Positions 1,603 through 59,558 are shown, counted from the first letter of the stretch. The stretch: DNA of 64,000 bases from Escherichia phage AidaStucki_Bas93 (PQ850593.1); one strand, 5' to 3'. Translations and numbers: made by a program. Notes: generated by a model not told the origin, from the sequence alone.

Positions 1603-3846
1603 ATGGCTAAGCAAAAATATAGTGAAGAGGTGTTGGACGAGTTACGTGTTGACCTTCAACGTCGTTTTAATTACGCTCAAGGTTACGTTGACATGGCTGT
1701 TAAGGGCTATGCTCGTGAAGCTTGGGAATATTTCTATGGTAACTTACCTGCACCAGTAACTGCTGGCAGCTCTAGTTGGGTAGATCGTACTGTTTGGGAG
1801 TCTGTTAACGGTACGCTGCAAGATATTATTAACGTATTCTGTTCTGGTGATGAAGCAGTTATTTTCGTAGCTGATAACCAACAGGATTCTGATGCTGCTG
1901 ACGTAGCAACTAAATTAGTTAATCAAATTCTTCTGCGTGATAATCCGGGATACAACATTATCTCTTCTGCTGCACAAGAATGTCTGGTTACTCGTAACTC
2001 TTTTATCAAATATTATTGGGATGAGCACACTTCTACCCAAACCGAAGAAGCTGAAGGTGTACCACCGGAGGCATTGGCTGCATATGTTCAGGGATTAGAA
2101 GCTGGTGGACTCAAGAATCTGGAAATCTTCACTGAAGAAAACGAAGATGGTACAGTAGATGTTAAAGTTACTTATGAACAAACTGTTAAACGTGTGAAAG
2201 TTGAATATGTTCCTTCAGAGCAAATCTTTGTTGACGAACATGCTACCTCTTTTGCAGATGCACAATATTTCTGTCATCGTGTACGTCGTTCTAAAGAAGA
2301 TCTGGTTGCTATGGGCTTCCCTAAAGACGAGATTGAAGCATTCAACGACTGGACAGATACGATGGATACCACTCAATCTACAGTTGCTTGGTCTCGTACT
2401 GACTGGCGTCAGGACATTGATGCTGACATTGGTACAGATACCGAAGATATCGCTTCTATGGTTTGGGTTTATGAGCACTACATCCGTACTGGTGTTCTAG
2501 ATAAGAATAAAGAGTCTAAACTCTATCAGGTTATTCAAGCTGGTGAGCATATCCTTCACACTGAAGAAGTAACTCATATTCCGTTTGTAACCTTCTGCCC
2601 ATATCCGATTCCGGGTTCCTTCTATGGTCAGTCAGTCTATGACATTACGAAAGATATTCAGGATTTACGTACCGCGTTAGTTCGTGGTTATATTGATAAC
2701 GTCAACAATGCTAACTATGGTCGATACAAAGCACTCGTTGGTGCATACGATCGTCGCTCTCTGCTTGATAATCGTCCCGGTGGAGTGGTTGAAATGGAAC
2801 GTCAGGACGCTATTGACCTGTTCCCATACCATAACCTACCTCAAGGTATTGACGGCCTATTAGGTATGTCTGAGGAGCTTAAAGAGACACGTACTGGTGT
2901 AACTAAACTTGGCATGGGTATCAACCCTGACGTGTTTAAGAATGATAACGCTTATGCAACTGTAGGCTTGATGATGAATGCTGCACAGAACCGTCTCCGT
3001 ATGGTATGTCGTAATATTGCTCACAACGGCATGGTTGAATTGATGCGTGGTATTTACAACCTTGTCAGAGAAAACGGTGAAGTTCCTATTGAGGTACAAA
3101 CCCCTCGTGGTATGGTTCAGGTAAATCCGAAACAATTACCAGCTCGTCACAATCTTCAAGTTGTGGTAGCTATTTCTCCTAATGAGAAAGCAGAACGTGC
3201 ACAGAAATTAATTAGCTTGAAACAGCTGATTGCAGCAGATGCACAGTTAGCACCTCTCTTTGGTTTGGAGCAAGACCGTTACATGACTGCACAGATCTTT
3301 GAGTTGATGGGTATTAAGGACACTCATAAGTACTTACTGCCTCTGGAACAGTATCAGCCTCCTGAGCCGTCTCCGATGGAAATCCTCCAGCTCGAGATGA
3401 CTAAAGCACAGGTTGAGAACGTACAGGCTTCCTCTCAGAAAATGATTGCTGATGCATTCGACCAACGTGAACGTACTACATTCGAACAGCAGAAAGCTGC
3501 GGATGAGTTAAGTCTGCGTCAGGAAGAGTTGCAGTTCAAGCAAGAAAATGCAGCAGATGCTATGACTCTGGAAAACCGTAAAGAAGATAACAATGCAACT
3601 CTGGAACAAGCAAAGCACAAGTTAGCTCTTATGCAACAGCAGGTCCGTCAGTATGAGTCTGTACTGAAAGAATTGCAGATGGTTATGGAGCATCAGGTAG
3701 ACCAAGAGAAGATTGTTCAGCAATTTCGTGTTCAGGATAAAACTTTGGAACTCCAAAAGAAAGAAGCTAATGTAACTAAGAAAGAGCAACAAGCCTCTCT
3801 CAAAGATTCACGGATTCCAGGCAAACGTCTTGGAAGTAAAAAGTAA
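1603..3846 (+). CDS. portal protein
   Basis: 747-aa ORF directly after terminase; Q/E-rich coiled-coil C-terminus; gene order terminase-portal-scaffold-capsid. Confidence 0.7.
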   Translation: MAKQKYSEEVLDELRVDLQRRFNYAQGYVDMAVKGYAREAWEYFYGNLPAPVTAGSSSWVDRTVWESVNGTLQDIINVFCSGDEAVIFVADNQQDSDAADVATKLVNQILLRDNPGYNIISSAAQECLVTRNSFIKYYWDEHTSTQTEEAEGVPPEALAAYVQGLEAGGLKNLEIFTEENEDGTVDVKVTYEQTVKRVKVEYVPSEQIFVDEHATSFADAQYFCHRVRRSKEDLVAMGFPKDEIEAFNDWTDTMDTTQSTVAWSRTDWRQDIDADIGTDTEDIASMVWVYEHYIRTGVLDKNKESKLYQVIQAGEHILHTEEVTHIPFVTFCPYPIPGSFYGQSVYDITKDIQDLRTALVRGYIDNVNNANYGRYKALVGAYDRRSLLDNRPGGVVEMERQDAIDLFPYHNLPQGIDGLLGMSEELKETRTGVTKLGMGINPDVFKNDNAYATVGLMMNAAQNRLRMVCRNIAHNGMVELMRGIYNLVRENGEVPIEVQTPRGMVQVNPKQLPARHNLQVVVAISPNEKAERAQKLISLKQLIAADAQLAPLFGLEQDRYMTAQIFELMGIKDTHKYLLPLEQYQPPEPSPMEILQLEMTKAQVENVQASSQKMIADAFDQRERTTFEQQKAADELSLRQEELQFKQENAADAMTLENRKEDNNATLEQAKHKLALMQQQVRQYESVLKELQMVMEHQVDQEKIVQQFRVQDKTLELQKKEANVTKKEQQASLKDSRIPGKRLGSKK

Positions 3847-3855
3847 GGACGTCGA

Positions 3856-4092
3856 ATGAACATTAGGCATCAATTCAATAAAGAGCACGCCGCCGCTTTG
3901 GCGGCTCTCAACCTTAACGGCAGTCTTGACGCAGCATTAGAGGCATTGAAAGAGAGACTCATGACAGAAATAGTTCAAACTGAACCTCATGAGAATAAGA
4001 AACGCGAAGATTGTTATCAAAAGTATAAAATGGTGGGTAGCTTAAAAGAGGTCATAAAAGCTGCTATCAATAGTGCAGGAGATGTTTCATAA
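3856..4092 (+). CDS. hypothetical protein
   Basis: 78-aa ORF packed between portal and scaffold genes. Confidence 0.4.
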   Translation: MNIRHQFNKEHAAALAALNLNGSLDAALEALKERLMTEIVQTEPHENKKREDCYQKYKMVGSLKEVIKAAINSAGDVS

Positions 4093-35160: not shown

Positions 35161-35654
35161 TTAGTGTGTATGCATCCAATTTAACCCAATCTGACAATCA
35201 GAAGCCAGAGGACATTCCATGTTCAAGTACTCACCAGCCTTCTTAACACAAAGCTCGGTGTACTCTTTGAGTTTCTGTACATCATTACGGTTCACTGAGA
35301 ACTGGCCCTCATCGTGCATATCAATTACCTTAGCACAACGAACTCCATCTTTCTCAATCCACTTGTTAAGGAACATCATAGCATATTTCATAACAACAGC
35401 ACCAGCACATTGCAGGAGTGTGTTAAGGGCTTTATGAACCATAACCTTACCAGTGGCATCCCGTCTCATTGTAATCTTACGACCATCAACGCCAATCAAA
35501 TACCCTTGAGCAGCTTTCTCTGTCATACGATCAATGAGGATTGCAATACATGGGTTCTCTGCCAAGAAGCGTGCTCGCATCACTGAACCTTCGTCAGCTC
35601 CACCACCTACGATTGAACCAAGTTTAGCATCACCAGCACCATAGTTAAACGCAT
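35161..35654 (-). CDS. DNA polymerase (family A, T7 gp5-like), exon 2
   Basis: frame reads ...YGAGDAKLGSIVGG ... ALNTLLQCAG ... VIDMHDEGQF, matching motif B end through motif C; the frame is open upstream of the track's GTG start. Confidence 0.75.
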
Positions 35655-36360
35655 CTCATATATTCGACAAGAGCCGCAACACTCTCGCCCGTTCTCTTAT
35701 GAACTGCTACATGTCGCCATGTAGGATAGACTATATCATCACCCTCTATCGAGGGGTTGGGCGCTTCCACCGGCATTAGCTTCCGGCGTACTCCTTTCGG
35801 ATAGTCGTTGCACCTTCAAGTATTCTATAGCTGTTTCTAATCGGCTAACATCATCTTTCAATAGCCCTAAAGCTCTGTTGCAGTTGTGACACAACAGACC
35901 GCGTATTACTCCGGATTCATGGCAATGATCAACCACAAGTTTAATTCTGTGATGTGTTGCCATTACAAACCCTTCGCCCTTACAGATAGCACACTTCCCA
36001 TCCTGATCAGCGTACATCTTTTCGTAATCGCTGGCTGTGATTCCATAAATTCGTTTGAAGTAGGAATTTCTCCAGCCCCTATCTTTGCATTCATCAGAGC
36101 AATAATGTTCAGATGGTGCATTTGGTTGAAAATCTTTTGAGCAATTACGACAAGGTTTTGGATTGAACCGACCTTGAGGGTATTTACTTGCCTCAGCAGT
36201 CTGTTCTTCTTTAGTTTTAGTTACAGTTGTATATTCCATAAGCACCTCCATGTTGAGTTGCTATAGAATACTTGCTTGGCTCAGGATTGTCTACTAGAGA
36301 GTTTCCCTGAGTTCACCCAATTTAATCGACGAGATTACTCTCGAAGTATCCATTTACGTC
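35655..36360 (-). mobile_element. putative group I intron in the DNA polymerase gene
   Basis: 706 nt between exon 1 ending on a U (first base of the in-frame TGA) and exon 2 beginning after a G; joining gives RDNAKTFI-Y-AFNYGAGD, a continuous motif B. Confidence 0.55.
35739..36251 (-). CDS. intron-encoded HNH homing endonuclease
   Basis: 170 aa with HNH/Endo-VII-like CAICKG ... DHCHESG ... CHNCN motif, located inside the polymerase interruption. Confidence 0.7.
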   Translation of the reverse strand: MEVLMEYTTVTKTKEEQTAEASKYPQGRFNPKPCRNCSKDFQPNAPSEHYCSDECKDRGWRNSYFKRIYGITASDYEKMYADQDGKCAICKGEGFVMATHHRIKLVVDHCHESGVIRGLLCHNCNRALGLLKDDVSRLETAIEYLKVQRLSERSTPEANAGGSAQPLDRG

Positions 36361-37711
36361 AGATAAACGTTTTAGCGTTGTCACGAGTAGGAAGACCAGC
36401 AAGTTTCTGGTTGTGGGAGTGGATATCACCTTCAAGAAGGATATCACGATACATAATAGCAGAAGCTAAACCACGTTCTGCCAGAGCTTTCTTAGCTGGA
36501 TTATTCTCTTCGATTGCTTCAGCAAGCATATCCCTACACTCTTTAATGAGGTAGTGAGCGAGCATACGAAGTTCAAGTCCAGAACCATCATACCCTAAGA
36601 ATACTTCTTTACCAGCGGGTATGTAATATTTGTAAGCACCTACAGGCTTATCTTTCTTCCCCGGCTTACCTTTCTCGTAAATTACGTTAGTACCTTTTCG
36701 TATATAACAACCATCAGGAACAACGTTAGTAATAACGAAAGGACGAGAGTGATCACTGTCTGAATTATAGTCAGACTCAAACAAACTGCGACACTCATGA
36801 CCAAACAAACCACGAGAGGGAATATTAACCACGATACGATGTTTGAATCGAAAAGTTGGCGTAGCGCAGCTGTTAGCTTCTGCCGAAAGTTTACCATCTT
36901 CGCGTTCCTTTGCTATGAGTCCACTGATAAGACCTAGCCTGTGAGCCGCTACAACGCGCCTCTTAAGCAAACTTCCAACACTCCCTAGCTCGCCCCCTAA
37001 CCCTTCTTCAAGAGTCTCCTCGAGGTTTGTAGGAGCTGTAGGCCACTTGTTTGAGGTAGCTAGTGCTATCTTAATCTCATCAAACGTGATAGGTCTACGT
37101 CGGTTAGGGTTTAAACCTAAACCAAACACATAAGCCTTCATATAGTTCTTAGTCTTAAACCTAAAATGCTTCTCTAAGAACCTCCTAATATCTGCGTCAA
37201 CCATCTCGGCTGTCTGCTTCTGTTTAGCATTACCTCGCATCCAAGCTGAATACCACGCTTGGTATGTTCCATACTTTCGTATATCTTTCTTGATTTCAAA
37301 AGTATTCCAAGGTTTCTTTGATACGTTAAACTCTGGAGGAAGAAAACCCTCATCCATAAGGGCTTCTTTAACTCGTGCATCTTTCGATGGGTCAAAGTCC
37401 ACGTATTCAACACAGGTGAATGCTCCACCAATGTCTTCTCTCTTAAGGCCAACTCTATCACAATAGGCTTGAGGCCACTTCTGTAAAGCTCCAGACTTCT
37501 TAAATGGCTTCATATAAGTAGAGCCATCTAATCTCATCTTAGGTAAGAGAGGGATCAGTTCTTTGTCGATATTAACAATAATCTCTTTAAGGAGGTGAAC
37601 ATACCACCGAGCATTTCTTCGGTTGAAACTCACTCCGTGCTTCGCTTGCTTAGAGATTATATCAGCGACAGTCATCTCTGTCAAAAATGGGAGAGCGTCC
37701 GGGTTGCTCAC
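36361..37711 (-). CDS. DNA polymerase (family A, T7 gp5-like), exon 1
   Basis: YDGSGLELRMLAHY (motif A) and ...LPTRDNAKTFI (start of motif B); colinear with the T7 gp5 polymerase domain but lacks the N-terminal exonuclease domain. Confidence 0.8.
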
Positions 37712-59456: not shown

Positions 59457-59558
59457 AGAGCTTCTAGCGAGGATGACAGGGTTCGAACCTGCATACTCCA
59501 ATTACTTCTTTAACGACCGCTTAGAAGGCGGGGAAGATACATCCTCGCTAGAAGCTCT
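59457..59558 (-). ncRNA. structured element: 19-bp perfect inverted repeat enclosing a 64-nt loop with tRNA-like T-arm (not a canonical tRNA)
   Basis: AGAGCTTCTAGCGAGGATG (59457-59475) pairs with 59540-59558; loop contains GCAGG-TTCGAAC-CCTGT and CCGC-CTTCTAA-GCGG hairpins; no D-arm could be folded. Confidence 0.35.

Follow-up and report, generated by a model that had tools for sequence, protein, structure and literature searches.

Group I introns of subgroup IA2 with the I-TslI open reading frame (ORF) in P6a were reportedly described by Bonocora and Shub, in 2004 and 2009, in the T7-like polymerase gene of PhiI and W31, and these introns are said to be self-splicing and mobile. In the 2009 work, I-TslI was reportedly found to be homologous to T3 gene 5.3. 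According to this literature, PhiI and W31 resemble the locus described here in the IA2 subgroup, the T7-type polymerase and the P6a ORF, but the type of the nuclease is different. Two later papers (PMC3428280; PMC6083498) cite T7-type polymerase genes as known since 2004 to contain self-splicing IA2 introns that carry a nuclease ORF in P6a. The polymerase gene of Pf-WMP3, again of the T7-like kind, likewise contains an IA2 intron, which encodes I-PfoP3I; this intron shares with our element an ORF running from P6a into P7, P7.1 and P7.2, a stop codon at the 5′ junction, a U·G pair in P1 and a terminal G; it differs in its insertion site, in the absence of P2 and in its canonical HNH nickase (PMC3428280).

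Two further groups of introns are close to the element studied here (insertion points are marked below by ^). The gene 5 introns of the Yersinia phages Berlin, Yepe2 and YpP-G and of the Klebsiella phage RCIP0053 interrupt motif B, as ours does, have P7.1, P7.2 and an ORF in P6a, use the conserved AIEYL codons of that ORF as the 3′ strand of P6a, and encode a nuclease ~59–60% identical to that of our locus; however, the cores are just 48–63% identical, and the Berlin-type ORF stops ahead of P7. The Berlin and YpP-G proteins are listed as homing endonucleases encoded in polymerase-gene introns (PMC6083498). The introns of Berlin, Vi06 and RCIP0053 lie 5 nt upstream of our site (…ACGTT^TATCT…) and have P1 GACGUU/G(G/A)CGUC (GGCGUC in the Berlin group) without P2, whereas our element has P1 UAUCU/GGAUA and a P2. 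The Berlin-type nuclease cassette otherwise occurs in T7-like introns at this upstream position. The other close relative is intron 1 of the Aeromonas phage MQM1, a phage of a different family, which occupies exactly our site (…ACGTTTATCT^…^ATGCG…) with the same P1 UAUCU/GGAUA; its P2, GGGGA-GUAA-UCCCC, has the same GUAA loop with compensatory changes in the stem, and its core is 77–79% identical to ours. The MQM1 intron differs in being 289 nt long, in having no nuclease gene in P6a and in a 3′ peripheral region of only 52% identity. Judged by these sequences, our element and the T7-like motif-B introns belong to the same ribozyme family but have different homing sites.

The window analysed here is a 64,000-nucleotide stretch of Escherichia phage AidaStucki_Bas93 (PQ850593.1), a phiEco32-like podovirus of the genus Kuravirus (subfamily Gordonclarkvirinae, small-genome clade) and not a T7-like phage. 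Its best matches over 24 kb were ManiMatter_Bas94 (98.2% identity, 95% coverage), JacquesWildberger_Bas92 (98.6% identity, 89% coverage) and LAMP (97.6% identity). The intron itself is already known, since a near-identical annotated copy exists in Bas94 (PQ850617.1), and it belongs to a well-described class. The Bas94 copy lies at the same site and is 99.6% identical over all 706 nt, with three substitutions, of which the two located turn a G·U into an A-U pair in P7.2 and replace one base of the P8 loop; in the record, the polymerase CDS is a join of two parts, and a CDS labelled “endonuclease VII” is nested in it. Bas94 belongs to the BASEL collection (PMC11990801). The word “intron” is absent from the paper on that collection (PMC11990801), and no publication dealing with introns of phiEco32-like or Gordonclarkvirinae phages turned up in our search of the literature. 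The main features of the locus, as we read them, are the following.

35655..36360, minus strand: group I intron with IA2 features, 706 nt, first base G36360, terminal (omega) G35655
36361..37711, minus strand: first exon of the gene for the family-A DNA polymerase, 450 codons from a GTG start and the first base of a Tyr codon
35161..35654, minus strand: exon 2 of the polymerase gene, AT GCG TTT AAC TAT GGT onward, through VIDMHDE (motif C) to the stop codon
35739..36239, minus strand: gene for a predicted Endonuclease VII-motif (DHHRN) homing endonuclease, 166 aa and stop, PF02945

Based on the results given below, we hold it very probable that motif B of the essential family-A DNA polymerase gene is interrupted by a mobile group I intron showing IA2 features. 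The original prediction had the polymerase ORF stopping just after RDNAKTFI, inside motif B, and resuming in frame downstream through VIDMHDE, and both statements were borne out. The ORF at 37711..36359 ends in …LPTRDNAKTFI (…HNQKLAGLPTRDNAKTFI) followed by TGA, the 3′ end of exon 1 on the minus strand being …AAA ACG TTT ATC T, and exon 1 has the same length and register as in the Bas92 CDS. The frame is picked up again at 35654 with (T)AT GCG TTT AAC TAT GGT GCT GGT GAT, translates as …YAFNYGAGDAKLGSIVGG… and then VIDMHDE, and reaches the stop at 35161. Pfam DNA_pol_A matched exon 2 (1.6e-16); exon 1 by itself gave no Pfam match at E ≤ 0.01, and its identity as polymerase comes from the PDB alignment of the spliced protein and from annotated homologues.

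The predicted borders of the insert, 36360..35655, agree exactly with the intronless allele of Bas92. There the polymerase gene is unbroken, …GCTAAAACGTTTATCTACGCGTTTAACTATGG…, and the site reads …ACGTTTATCT^ACGCGTTTAAC…; the window has …GCTAAAACGTTTATCT, 706 nt, and ATGCGTTTAACTATGG…. The outermost bases of the insert are G and G, unlike the neighbouring T (before) and A (after), so the 706-nt indel can be placed solely at 36360..35655. If the exons are joined directly behind T36361 and G35655, the result is …TFIYAFNYGAGD…, identical to the intronless Bas92 sequence. The spliced coding sequence of 1845 nt equals the Bas92 CDS in length and differs from it at 12 nucleotides; the 614-aa spliced protein differs at 1 of the 614 residues (R205S). 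Colinearity with motif B of T7 gp5 was likewise confirmed, the alignment running without a gap over the junction: LPTRDNAKTFIYAFNYGAGDAKLG against LPTRDNAKTFIYGFLYGAGDEKIG, or, in the PDB alignment, lptrdnaktfiyafnygagdaklgsivg against LPTRDNAKTFIYGFLYGAGDEKIGQIVG (whole-protein E=3e-33). Moreover, 338 phage records, T7 gene 5 included, contain the 101-nt spliced junction as unbroken DNA along 80% or more of its length, which speaks against a chance resemblance. The predicted RNA junction would read …ACGTTTATCT^ATGCGTTT…, and the predicted junction-spanning peptide would be TFIYAFNYGAGDAK. Splicing at another position, with the 5′ cut following …TTTAT, P1 CGUUUAU/GUAAAUG, the 3′ cut following G35657 and the product TFI-D-AFNYG, was considered and rejected, since the boundaries are set by the intronless allele and the Tyr at this position agrees with T7 gp5. 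For annotation, the two polymerase ORFs need to be joined as join(37711..36361, 35654..35161) on the minus strand; without this join the essential polymerase appears truncated.

The structure of the intron RNA was drawn by hand along the Rfam alignment, and every element was then located in the sequence:

36347..36365, minus strand: P1, exon UAUCU (36365..36361) with the internal guide GGAUA (36351..36347)
36355..36360, minus strand: proposed P10 guide GACGUA (intron nt 1–6), with UGCGUU of exon 2 (nt 2–7, 35653..35648)
36330..36343, minus strand: P2 hairpin CGAGA-GUAA-UCUCG, from the sequence
36279..36320, minus strand: 5′ half of the core, from the Rfam alignment and pair counts
36320..36314, minus strand: 5′ strand of P3, UUGGGUG, partner CGCCCAA
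36310..36305 with 36286..36281, minus strand: P4, UCAGGG/UCCUGA
36300..36290, minus strand: P5, a short hairpin, from the Rfam alignment
36280..36279, minus strand: 5′ strand of P6, GC, partner GU
36263..36274, minus strand: 5′ strand of P6a, CAAGUAUUCUAU, a perfect 12-bp match with 35828..35817
35817..35828, minus strand: 3′ strand of P6a, AUAGAAUACUUG, part of the nuclease gene, formed by the codons for the conserved …AIEYLK
35729..35813, minus strand: 3′ half of the core, from the Rfam alignment and covariation
35813..35812, minus strand: 3′ strand of P6, GU
35806..35802, minus strand: 5′ strand of P7, GACUA, with UAGUC
35801..35792, minus strand: P7.1, UCC-GAAA-GGA, followed by the GUA linker at 35791..35789
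35788..35768, minus strand: P7.2, CGCCGG…CCGGUG, from covariation
35763..35757, minus strand: 3′ strand of P3, CGCCCAA, from the Rfam alignment
35755..35742, minus strand: P8, CCCUC-GAUA-GAGGG, from the Rfam alignment and covariation
35741..35734, minus strand: J8/7, which holds the nuclease stop codon
35733..35729, minus strand: 3′ strand of P7, UAGUC, from the Rfam alignment
35666..35724, minus strand: 3′ peripheral hairpins P9, P9.1 and P9.2, from pair counts of helices 11–13 and the minimum free energy (MFE) fold
35724..35707, minus strand: P9, with a GCGA loop
35704..35691, minus strand: P9.1
35689..35666, minus strand: P9.2

The check proposed with the original prediction, namely folding the 706-nt segment and comparing it with the Rfam group I model, thus located elements from P1 to P9 and matched RF00028. 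The two hallmarks predicted for the termini were found as well: P1 is 5 bp long, with the last exon base, U36361, in a U·G wobble with G36351 of the guide, and the terminal G of the intron is at 35655. The nuclease ORF is enclosed in the loop of P6a, and the P6a complementarity is retained in 5 of 5 homologues, ORF-containing or ORF-less, in which the sequences themselves differ. A P4 register of CUCAGG/CCUGAG clashed with P6, and the Rfam register UCAGGG/UCCUGA was adopted instead. The MFE fold of the ORF-deleted intron recovered 62 of the 69 drawn nested pairs, and in the MFE structure of this mini-intron (ViennaRNA) intron nt 1–6 pair with exon 2 nt 2–7, which makes the P10 pairing GACGUA/UGCGUU plausible.

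In the whole-window Rfam scan, RF00028 was matched over the full model (positions 1–253) at 35707..36375 on the minus strand, with 43.9 bits and E=6.7e-8; the curated gathering score, taken as the operational threshold, is 50 bits and is thus not reached, likely because the model must bridge the ~430-nt ORF insertion in P6a. The ORF-less relatives all score above 50 bits (MQM1 75.1, HP1 75.5 and LAMP 100.8). When only 35300..36700 was scanned, the match broke into two halves, both below the threshold and each with half of its alignment straying spuriously into the ORF, and the single full-model match of the whole-window scan is the Rfam result relied on here. No other group I introns were found within the 64-kb window, and a promoter and terminator scan of the intron gave nothing that exceeded shuffled sequences.

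The group I core that the original prediction called for is supported by covariation among homologues in addition to the RF00028 match. Homologous introns were obtained by blastn from the Aeromonas phage MQM1, the Salmonella phage Vi06, the Yersinia phage Berlin, the Klebsiella phage RCIP0053 (two introns) and the Pseudoalteromonas phage HP1; seven ORF-deleted mini-introns were aligned, and the P3–P9.2 structure of the window intron, including the P3/P7 pseudoknot, was projected onto the alignment. Standard pairs occupied 93.5% of the cells, a value inflated by the fact that the structure was taken from a single one of the aligned introns; this bias does not act in the same way on the compensatory counts, and changes on both sides were seen at 39 of the 64 pairs among the 7 introns. 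The covariation score was 0.513 compared to 0.198 in shuffles, none of 500 of which reached the observed value, and when the 3′ partners were slid by 1–3 columns as a control, only 34–42% were paired. Helices 1–4 were 96–100% paired, with compensatory changes present, while P7 is uninformative in this respect because it is invariant. The IA2 subgroup is characterized by two extra helices, P7.1 and P7.2, which follow P7, precede P3′ and are linked to each other by G-U-A (PMC3428280). Both hairpins are present in our intron, the GUA columns of the alignment are invariant, and both helices (helices 8 and 9) covary.

The 170-aa HNH endonuclease of the original prediction (35739..36251) is a real ORF, with 170 codons confirmed at 36251..35739, and its product is a nuclease according to Pfam, but two points of that description have to be changed. 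The start is probably the second ATG, at 36239, which yields 166 aa, rather than the upstream alternative at 36251; the Shine-Dalgarno sequence GGAGGT at 36249..36244, ahead of ATG 36239, the annotated start in Bas94 and the N-terminus of the Berlin homologue point to this choice. The label “HNH” holds only at the superfamily level. Pfam Endonuclease_7 (PF02945) was matched with 82.9 bits against a cut-off of 23.6 bits (E=1.5e-23), and the nearest PDB structures were the restriction enzyme Hpy99I (5.7e-7), with the end of which the C-terminal IEYLK motif aligns, and T4 endonuclease VII (3e-5). The “DHHRN” family was defined by Fang et al. (PMC6083498). With the family pattern applied as CX2-4C … DH(D)H … R … CX2C-N, the motif CAIC…VVDHCHESGVIRGLLCHNCN contains both Cys pairs and all five named DHHRN residues, and the residue pattern CAIC…DHCH…R…CHNCN is intact. 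The window nuclease showed no similarity to T3 gp5.3 in a BLASTP comparison (best E=4.1), the same comparison with the Vi06 nuclease was negative too, and owing to this lack of homology the window nuclease was not classed with the HNH type of I-TslI and T3 gp5.3. In terms of sequence, the enzyme belongs to the beta-beta-alpha-metal superfamily, which it shares with HNH nucleases, yet it is not a canonical HNH protein, and in annotation the nested ORF is best called an intron-encoded homing endonuclease of the Endonuclease VII type. All of the best relatives of the protein are encoded within gene 5 of T7-like phages of Yersinia, Klebsiella and Pectobacterium, and its identity to the intron ORF protein of Yersinia phage Berlin is 60%.

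The splicing steps of group I introns follow an established pathway. In the window phage the polymerase gene would be transcribed as a single pre-mRNA, in which the intron RNA would fold into a standard ribozyme and P1 (UAUCU/GGAUA) would set U36361 in the U·G wobble. Exogenous guanosine would then cleave after U36361, and the freed exon 1 would attack after the terminal G35655, probably assisted by P10 (intron nt 1–6 with exon 2 nt 2–7). The ligated exons, …TTT ATC T^AT GCG…, would restore K-T-F-I-Y-A-F-N-Y-G; as the UGA across the 5′ junction ends translation of unspliced RNA, only the spliced mRNA should lead to active polymerase. The nuclease gene in the P6a loop would be translated separately, from its own Shine-Dalgarno sequence and ATG 36239. 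During mixed infection the nuclease should cleave polymerase alleles that lack the intron, close to the insertion site (ACGTTTATCTAC), and repair from the intron-containing copy would spread the intron.

The only live alternative to a mobile intron is one in which the ribozyme splices but the element no longer moves, the ORF being inactive, decaying or non-homing and the intron being inherited only vertically. We consider this quite unlikely. The C-terminus of the nuclease could be taken as a sign of decay: the ORF reads ~23 codons beyond the stop of the Berlin homologue, because the window has CAA where Berlin has TAA, and this ribozyme-encoded tail runs through P6′, P7, P7.1, P7.2, P3′ and P8 to a UGA stop in J8/7. 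Such a tail, however, seems to be tolerated, since the nuclease of Vi06, an unrelated protein whose matching with that of the window is confined to the ribozyme-encoded part, has the same kind of read-through. The 166-codon ORF is also intact and retains every residue for zinc binding and catalysis (CxxC, DHxH, R, CxxC-N); the Shine-Dalgarno sequence is conserved as well.

The distribution of the intron bears on the same question from both sides. Of the phage collection searched, only one other genome carries the intron, which is in keeping with vertical inheritance alone, while the patchy presence among near-identical phages (in the window phage and Bas94, absent from Bas92 and, at this site, from LAMP), 98–99% identical genome-wide, fits recent gain or loss. 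A multi-marker co-conversion tract against Bas92 is not visible. The alleles are separated by a single exon marker, TAC→TAT at +2, so no clear co-conversion tract attests to recent homing. The split Tyr codon is T^AT in the intron-plus alleles (window, Bas94 and MQM1) and TAC in the two intronless Kuravirus alleles examined, a small sample. Through this synonymous change at 35653 the proposed P10 gains one A-U pair; the T could be explained by that pair or equally by a co-converted marker or protection against cleavage.

A fractured gene without RNA splicing, in which a free-standing nuclease gene has split the polymerase and two polypeptides assemble into the active enzyme, is very improbable. 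Exon 1 does end in a stop codon and is followed downstream by a 140-codon ORF with a GTG start (35583..35161), and phage genes split by nuclease inserts are known from metagenomes (PMC2677866). Yet motif B itself is broken, K and Y of K-T-F-I-Y being separated, and a polypeptide begun at the earliest start available in exon 2, GTG 35583, would lack YAFNYGAGDAKLGSIVGGGADEGS entirely, with YAFNYGAGDAKLG… deleted. Moreover, the insert is an exact 706-nt indel whose removal restores the reading frame, and its group I core is complete and backed by covariation. As for an intein or a group II intron, both of which interrupt conserved motifs of phage replication genes, the sequence excludes them and we give them practically no weight: the insert cannot be an intein, as 706 nt is no multiple of 3, an in-frame stop opens it (TGA across the 5′ junction) and the polymerase frame is full of stops, and for a group II intron there was neither an Rfam group II match in the whole-window E-value scan nor a reverse transcriptase ORF.

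With the mobile group I intron as the preferred reading, the comparison by segment shows that the core of the window intron is nearest to those of MQM1 and Vi06 (77–79%) and far from that of Berlin (48–57%), whereas its nuclease is Berlin-like. The combination of a Berlin-like nuclease with an MQM1/Vi06-like core, together with the unrelated nuclease of Vi06, suggests modular assortment of ribozymes and nucleases. Three group I insertion sites lie within 17 nt of motif B. We tentatively propose, though we regard it as somewhat more doubtful than probable, that the element is a natural chimera of a “site-B” MQM1-like ribozyme (P1, P2 and core) and a Berlin-type Endonuclease VII cassette, and that these 17 nt of motif B serve as a landing pad; in the same reading, and with the same reservation taken jointly with the landing pad, one motif-B-targeting nuclease lineage may have joined different ribozymes independently. 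Introns and homing endonucleases are said, in the model of Bonocora and Shub, to converge separately on the same conserved sequence, and the locus, if our proposal is true, would provide a new natural case on which to test this model.

Biologically, the locus is one further case of the well-described IA2 introns with nucleases in motif B of T7-type phage polymerases. Its sole added value is comparative, in that related culturable E. coli phages differ in their intron content within 17 nt. For crosses, E. coli phages are available with no intron here (Bas92), with this intron (Bas94) and with a downstream one (LAMP), and such a set would be convenient for studies on the choice of homing sites and on the assortment of introns and nucleases. 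The third intron, that of the sister phage LAMP, is ORF-less, lies 12 nt downstream (…TTTAACT^ATGG…) and is flanked by a cluster of synonymous exon changes. In the PE006-type Kuraviruses, yet another intron is located in motif C.

The nucleases encoded by the introns of the window and of phage Vi06 both continue through the ribozyme core (at 35739-35813, minus strand, in the window and at ~1945-2021 in Vi06). These two proteins, the former of the Endonuclease VII type, are unrelated, and both terminate at the same UGA in J8/7; their C-terminal tails, encoded by P7.2, P3' and P8, are therefore alike (…STPEANAGGSAQPLDRG and …STSEANADGSAQPLETE, respectively). Berlin differs in having TAA at the position where the window and Vi06 have CAA.

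A different group I intron was observed in a sister Kuravirus, Escherichia phage LAMP (MG673519, 1753-2056). It is 304 nt long, lacks an ORF and scores 100.8 bits against Rfam. Its insertion site is also in motif B of the polymerase, 12 nt downstream of that of the window (junction …CCTTTAACT|…|ATGGGGCAGG…), and together with the T7-like site this places three group I insertion sites within 17 nt. Comparison of LAMP with the intronless allele of Bas92 revealed synonymous differences clustered in the exon codons that flank the intron, a pattern that resembles a co-conversion tract.

In other Kuraviruses the polymerase gene carries a further intron, observed in phage vB_EcoM_PE006 (PQ812250, ~3290-3885). 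It is inserted in motif C (VIDMH|DEGQF), contains a "homing endonuclease" ORF and has a sub-threshold Rfam score of 28.7 bits; in GenBank, the exons are two separate CDSs, "DNA polymerase" and "DNA polymerase-like protein."

The polymerase gene of the T7-like Klebsiella phage RCIP0053 appears to have three group I introns, two of which contain nuclease ORFs:

Candidate introns of RCIP0053 (OR532847)
~1340-1590, first candidate intron
1821-2495, second candidate intron
~2880-3520, third candidate intron

This polymerase is unannotated in the record, because every piece of the gene is labelled only as "hypothetical protein."

The polymerase of the window is only 614 aa long, its alignment to T7 gp5 begins near gp5 residue 290, and the N-terminal 3'-5' exonuclease domain that gp5 has seems to be missing from it. 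Exon 1 (36361-37711, minus strand), searched alone, gave no Pfam match at E ≤ 0.01. Elsewhere in the window, Rfam placed a borderline tRNA at 59468-59546 (minus strand), whose score of 29.7 bits (E = 0.038) barely clears the cut-off of 29 bits; ARAGORN found no tRNA across the whole window.

A core homologous to that of the window's intron was also observed in Pseudoalteromonas phage HP1 between gp50 and gp51, both "hypothetical," with a second core downstream:

Intron cores of HP1 (NC_048630, Rfam)
1946-2290, first core, 75.5 bits
2720-3040, second core, 57.9 bits

Neither core is annotated as an intron in the record. When translated, gp50 and gp51 look like a primase-helicase whose Walker A motif is the point of the split (…YYFGSGV / MGKSVV…).
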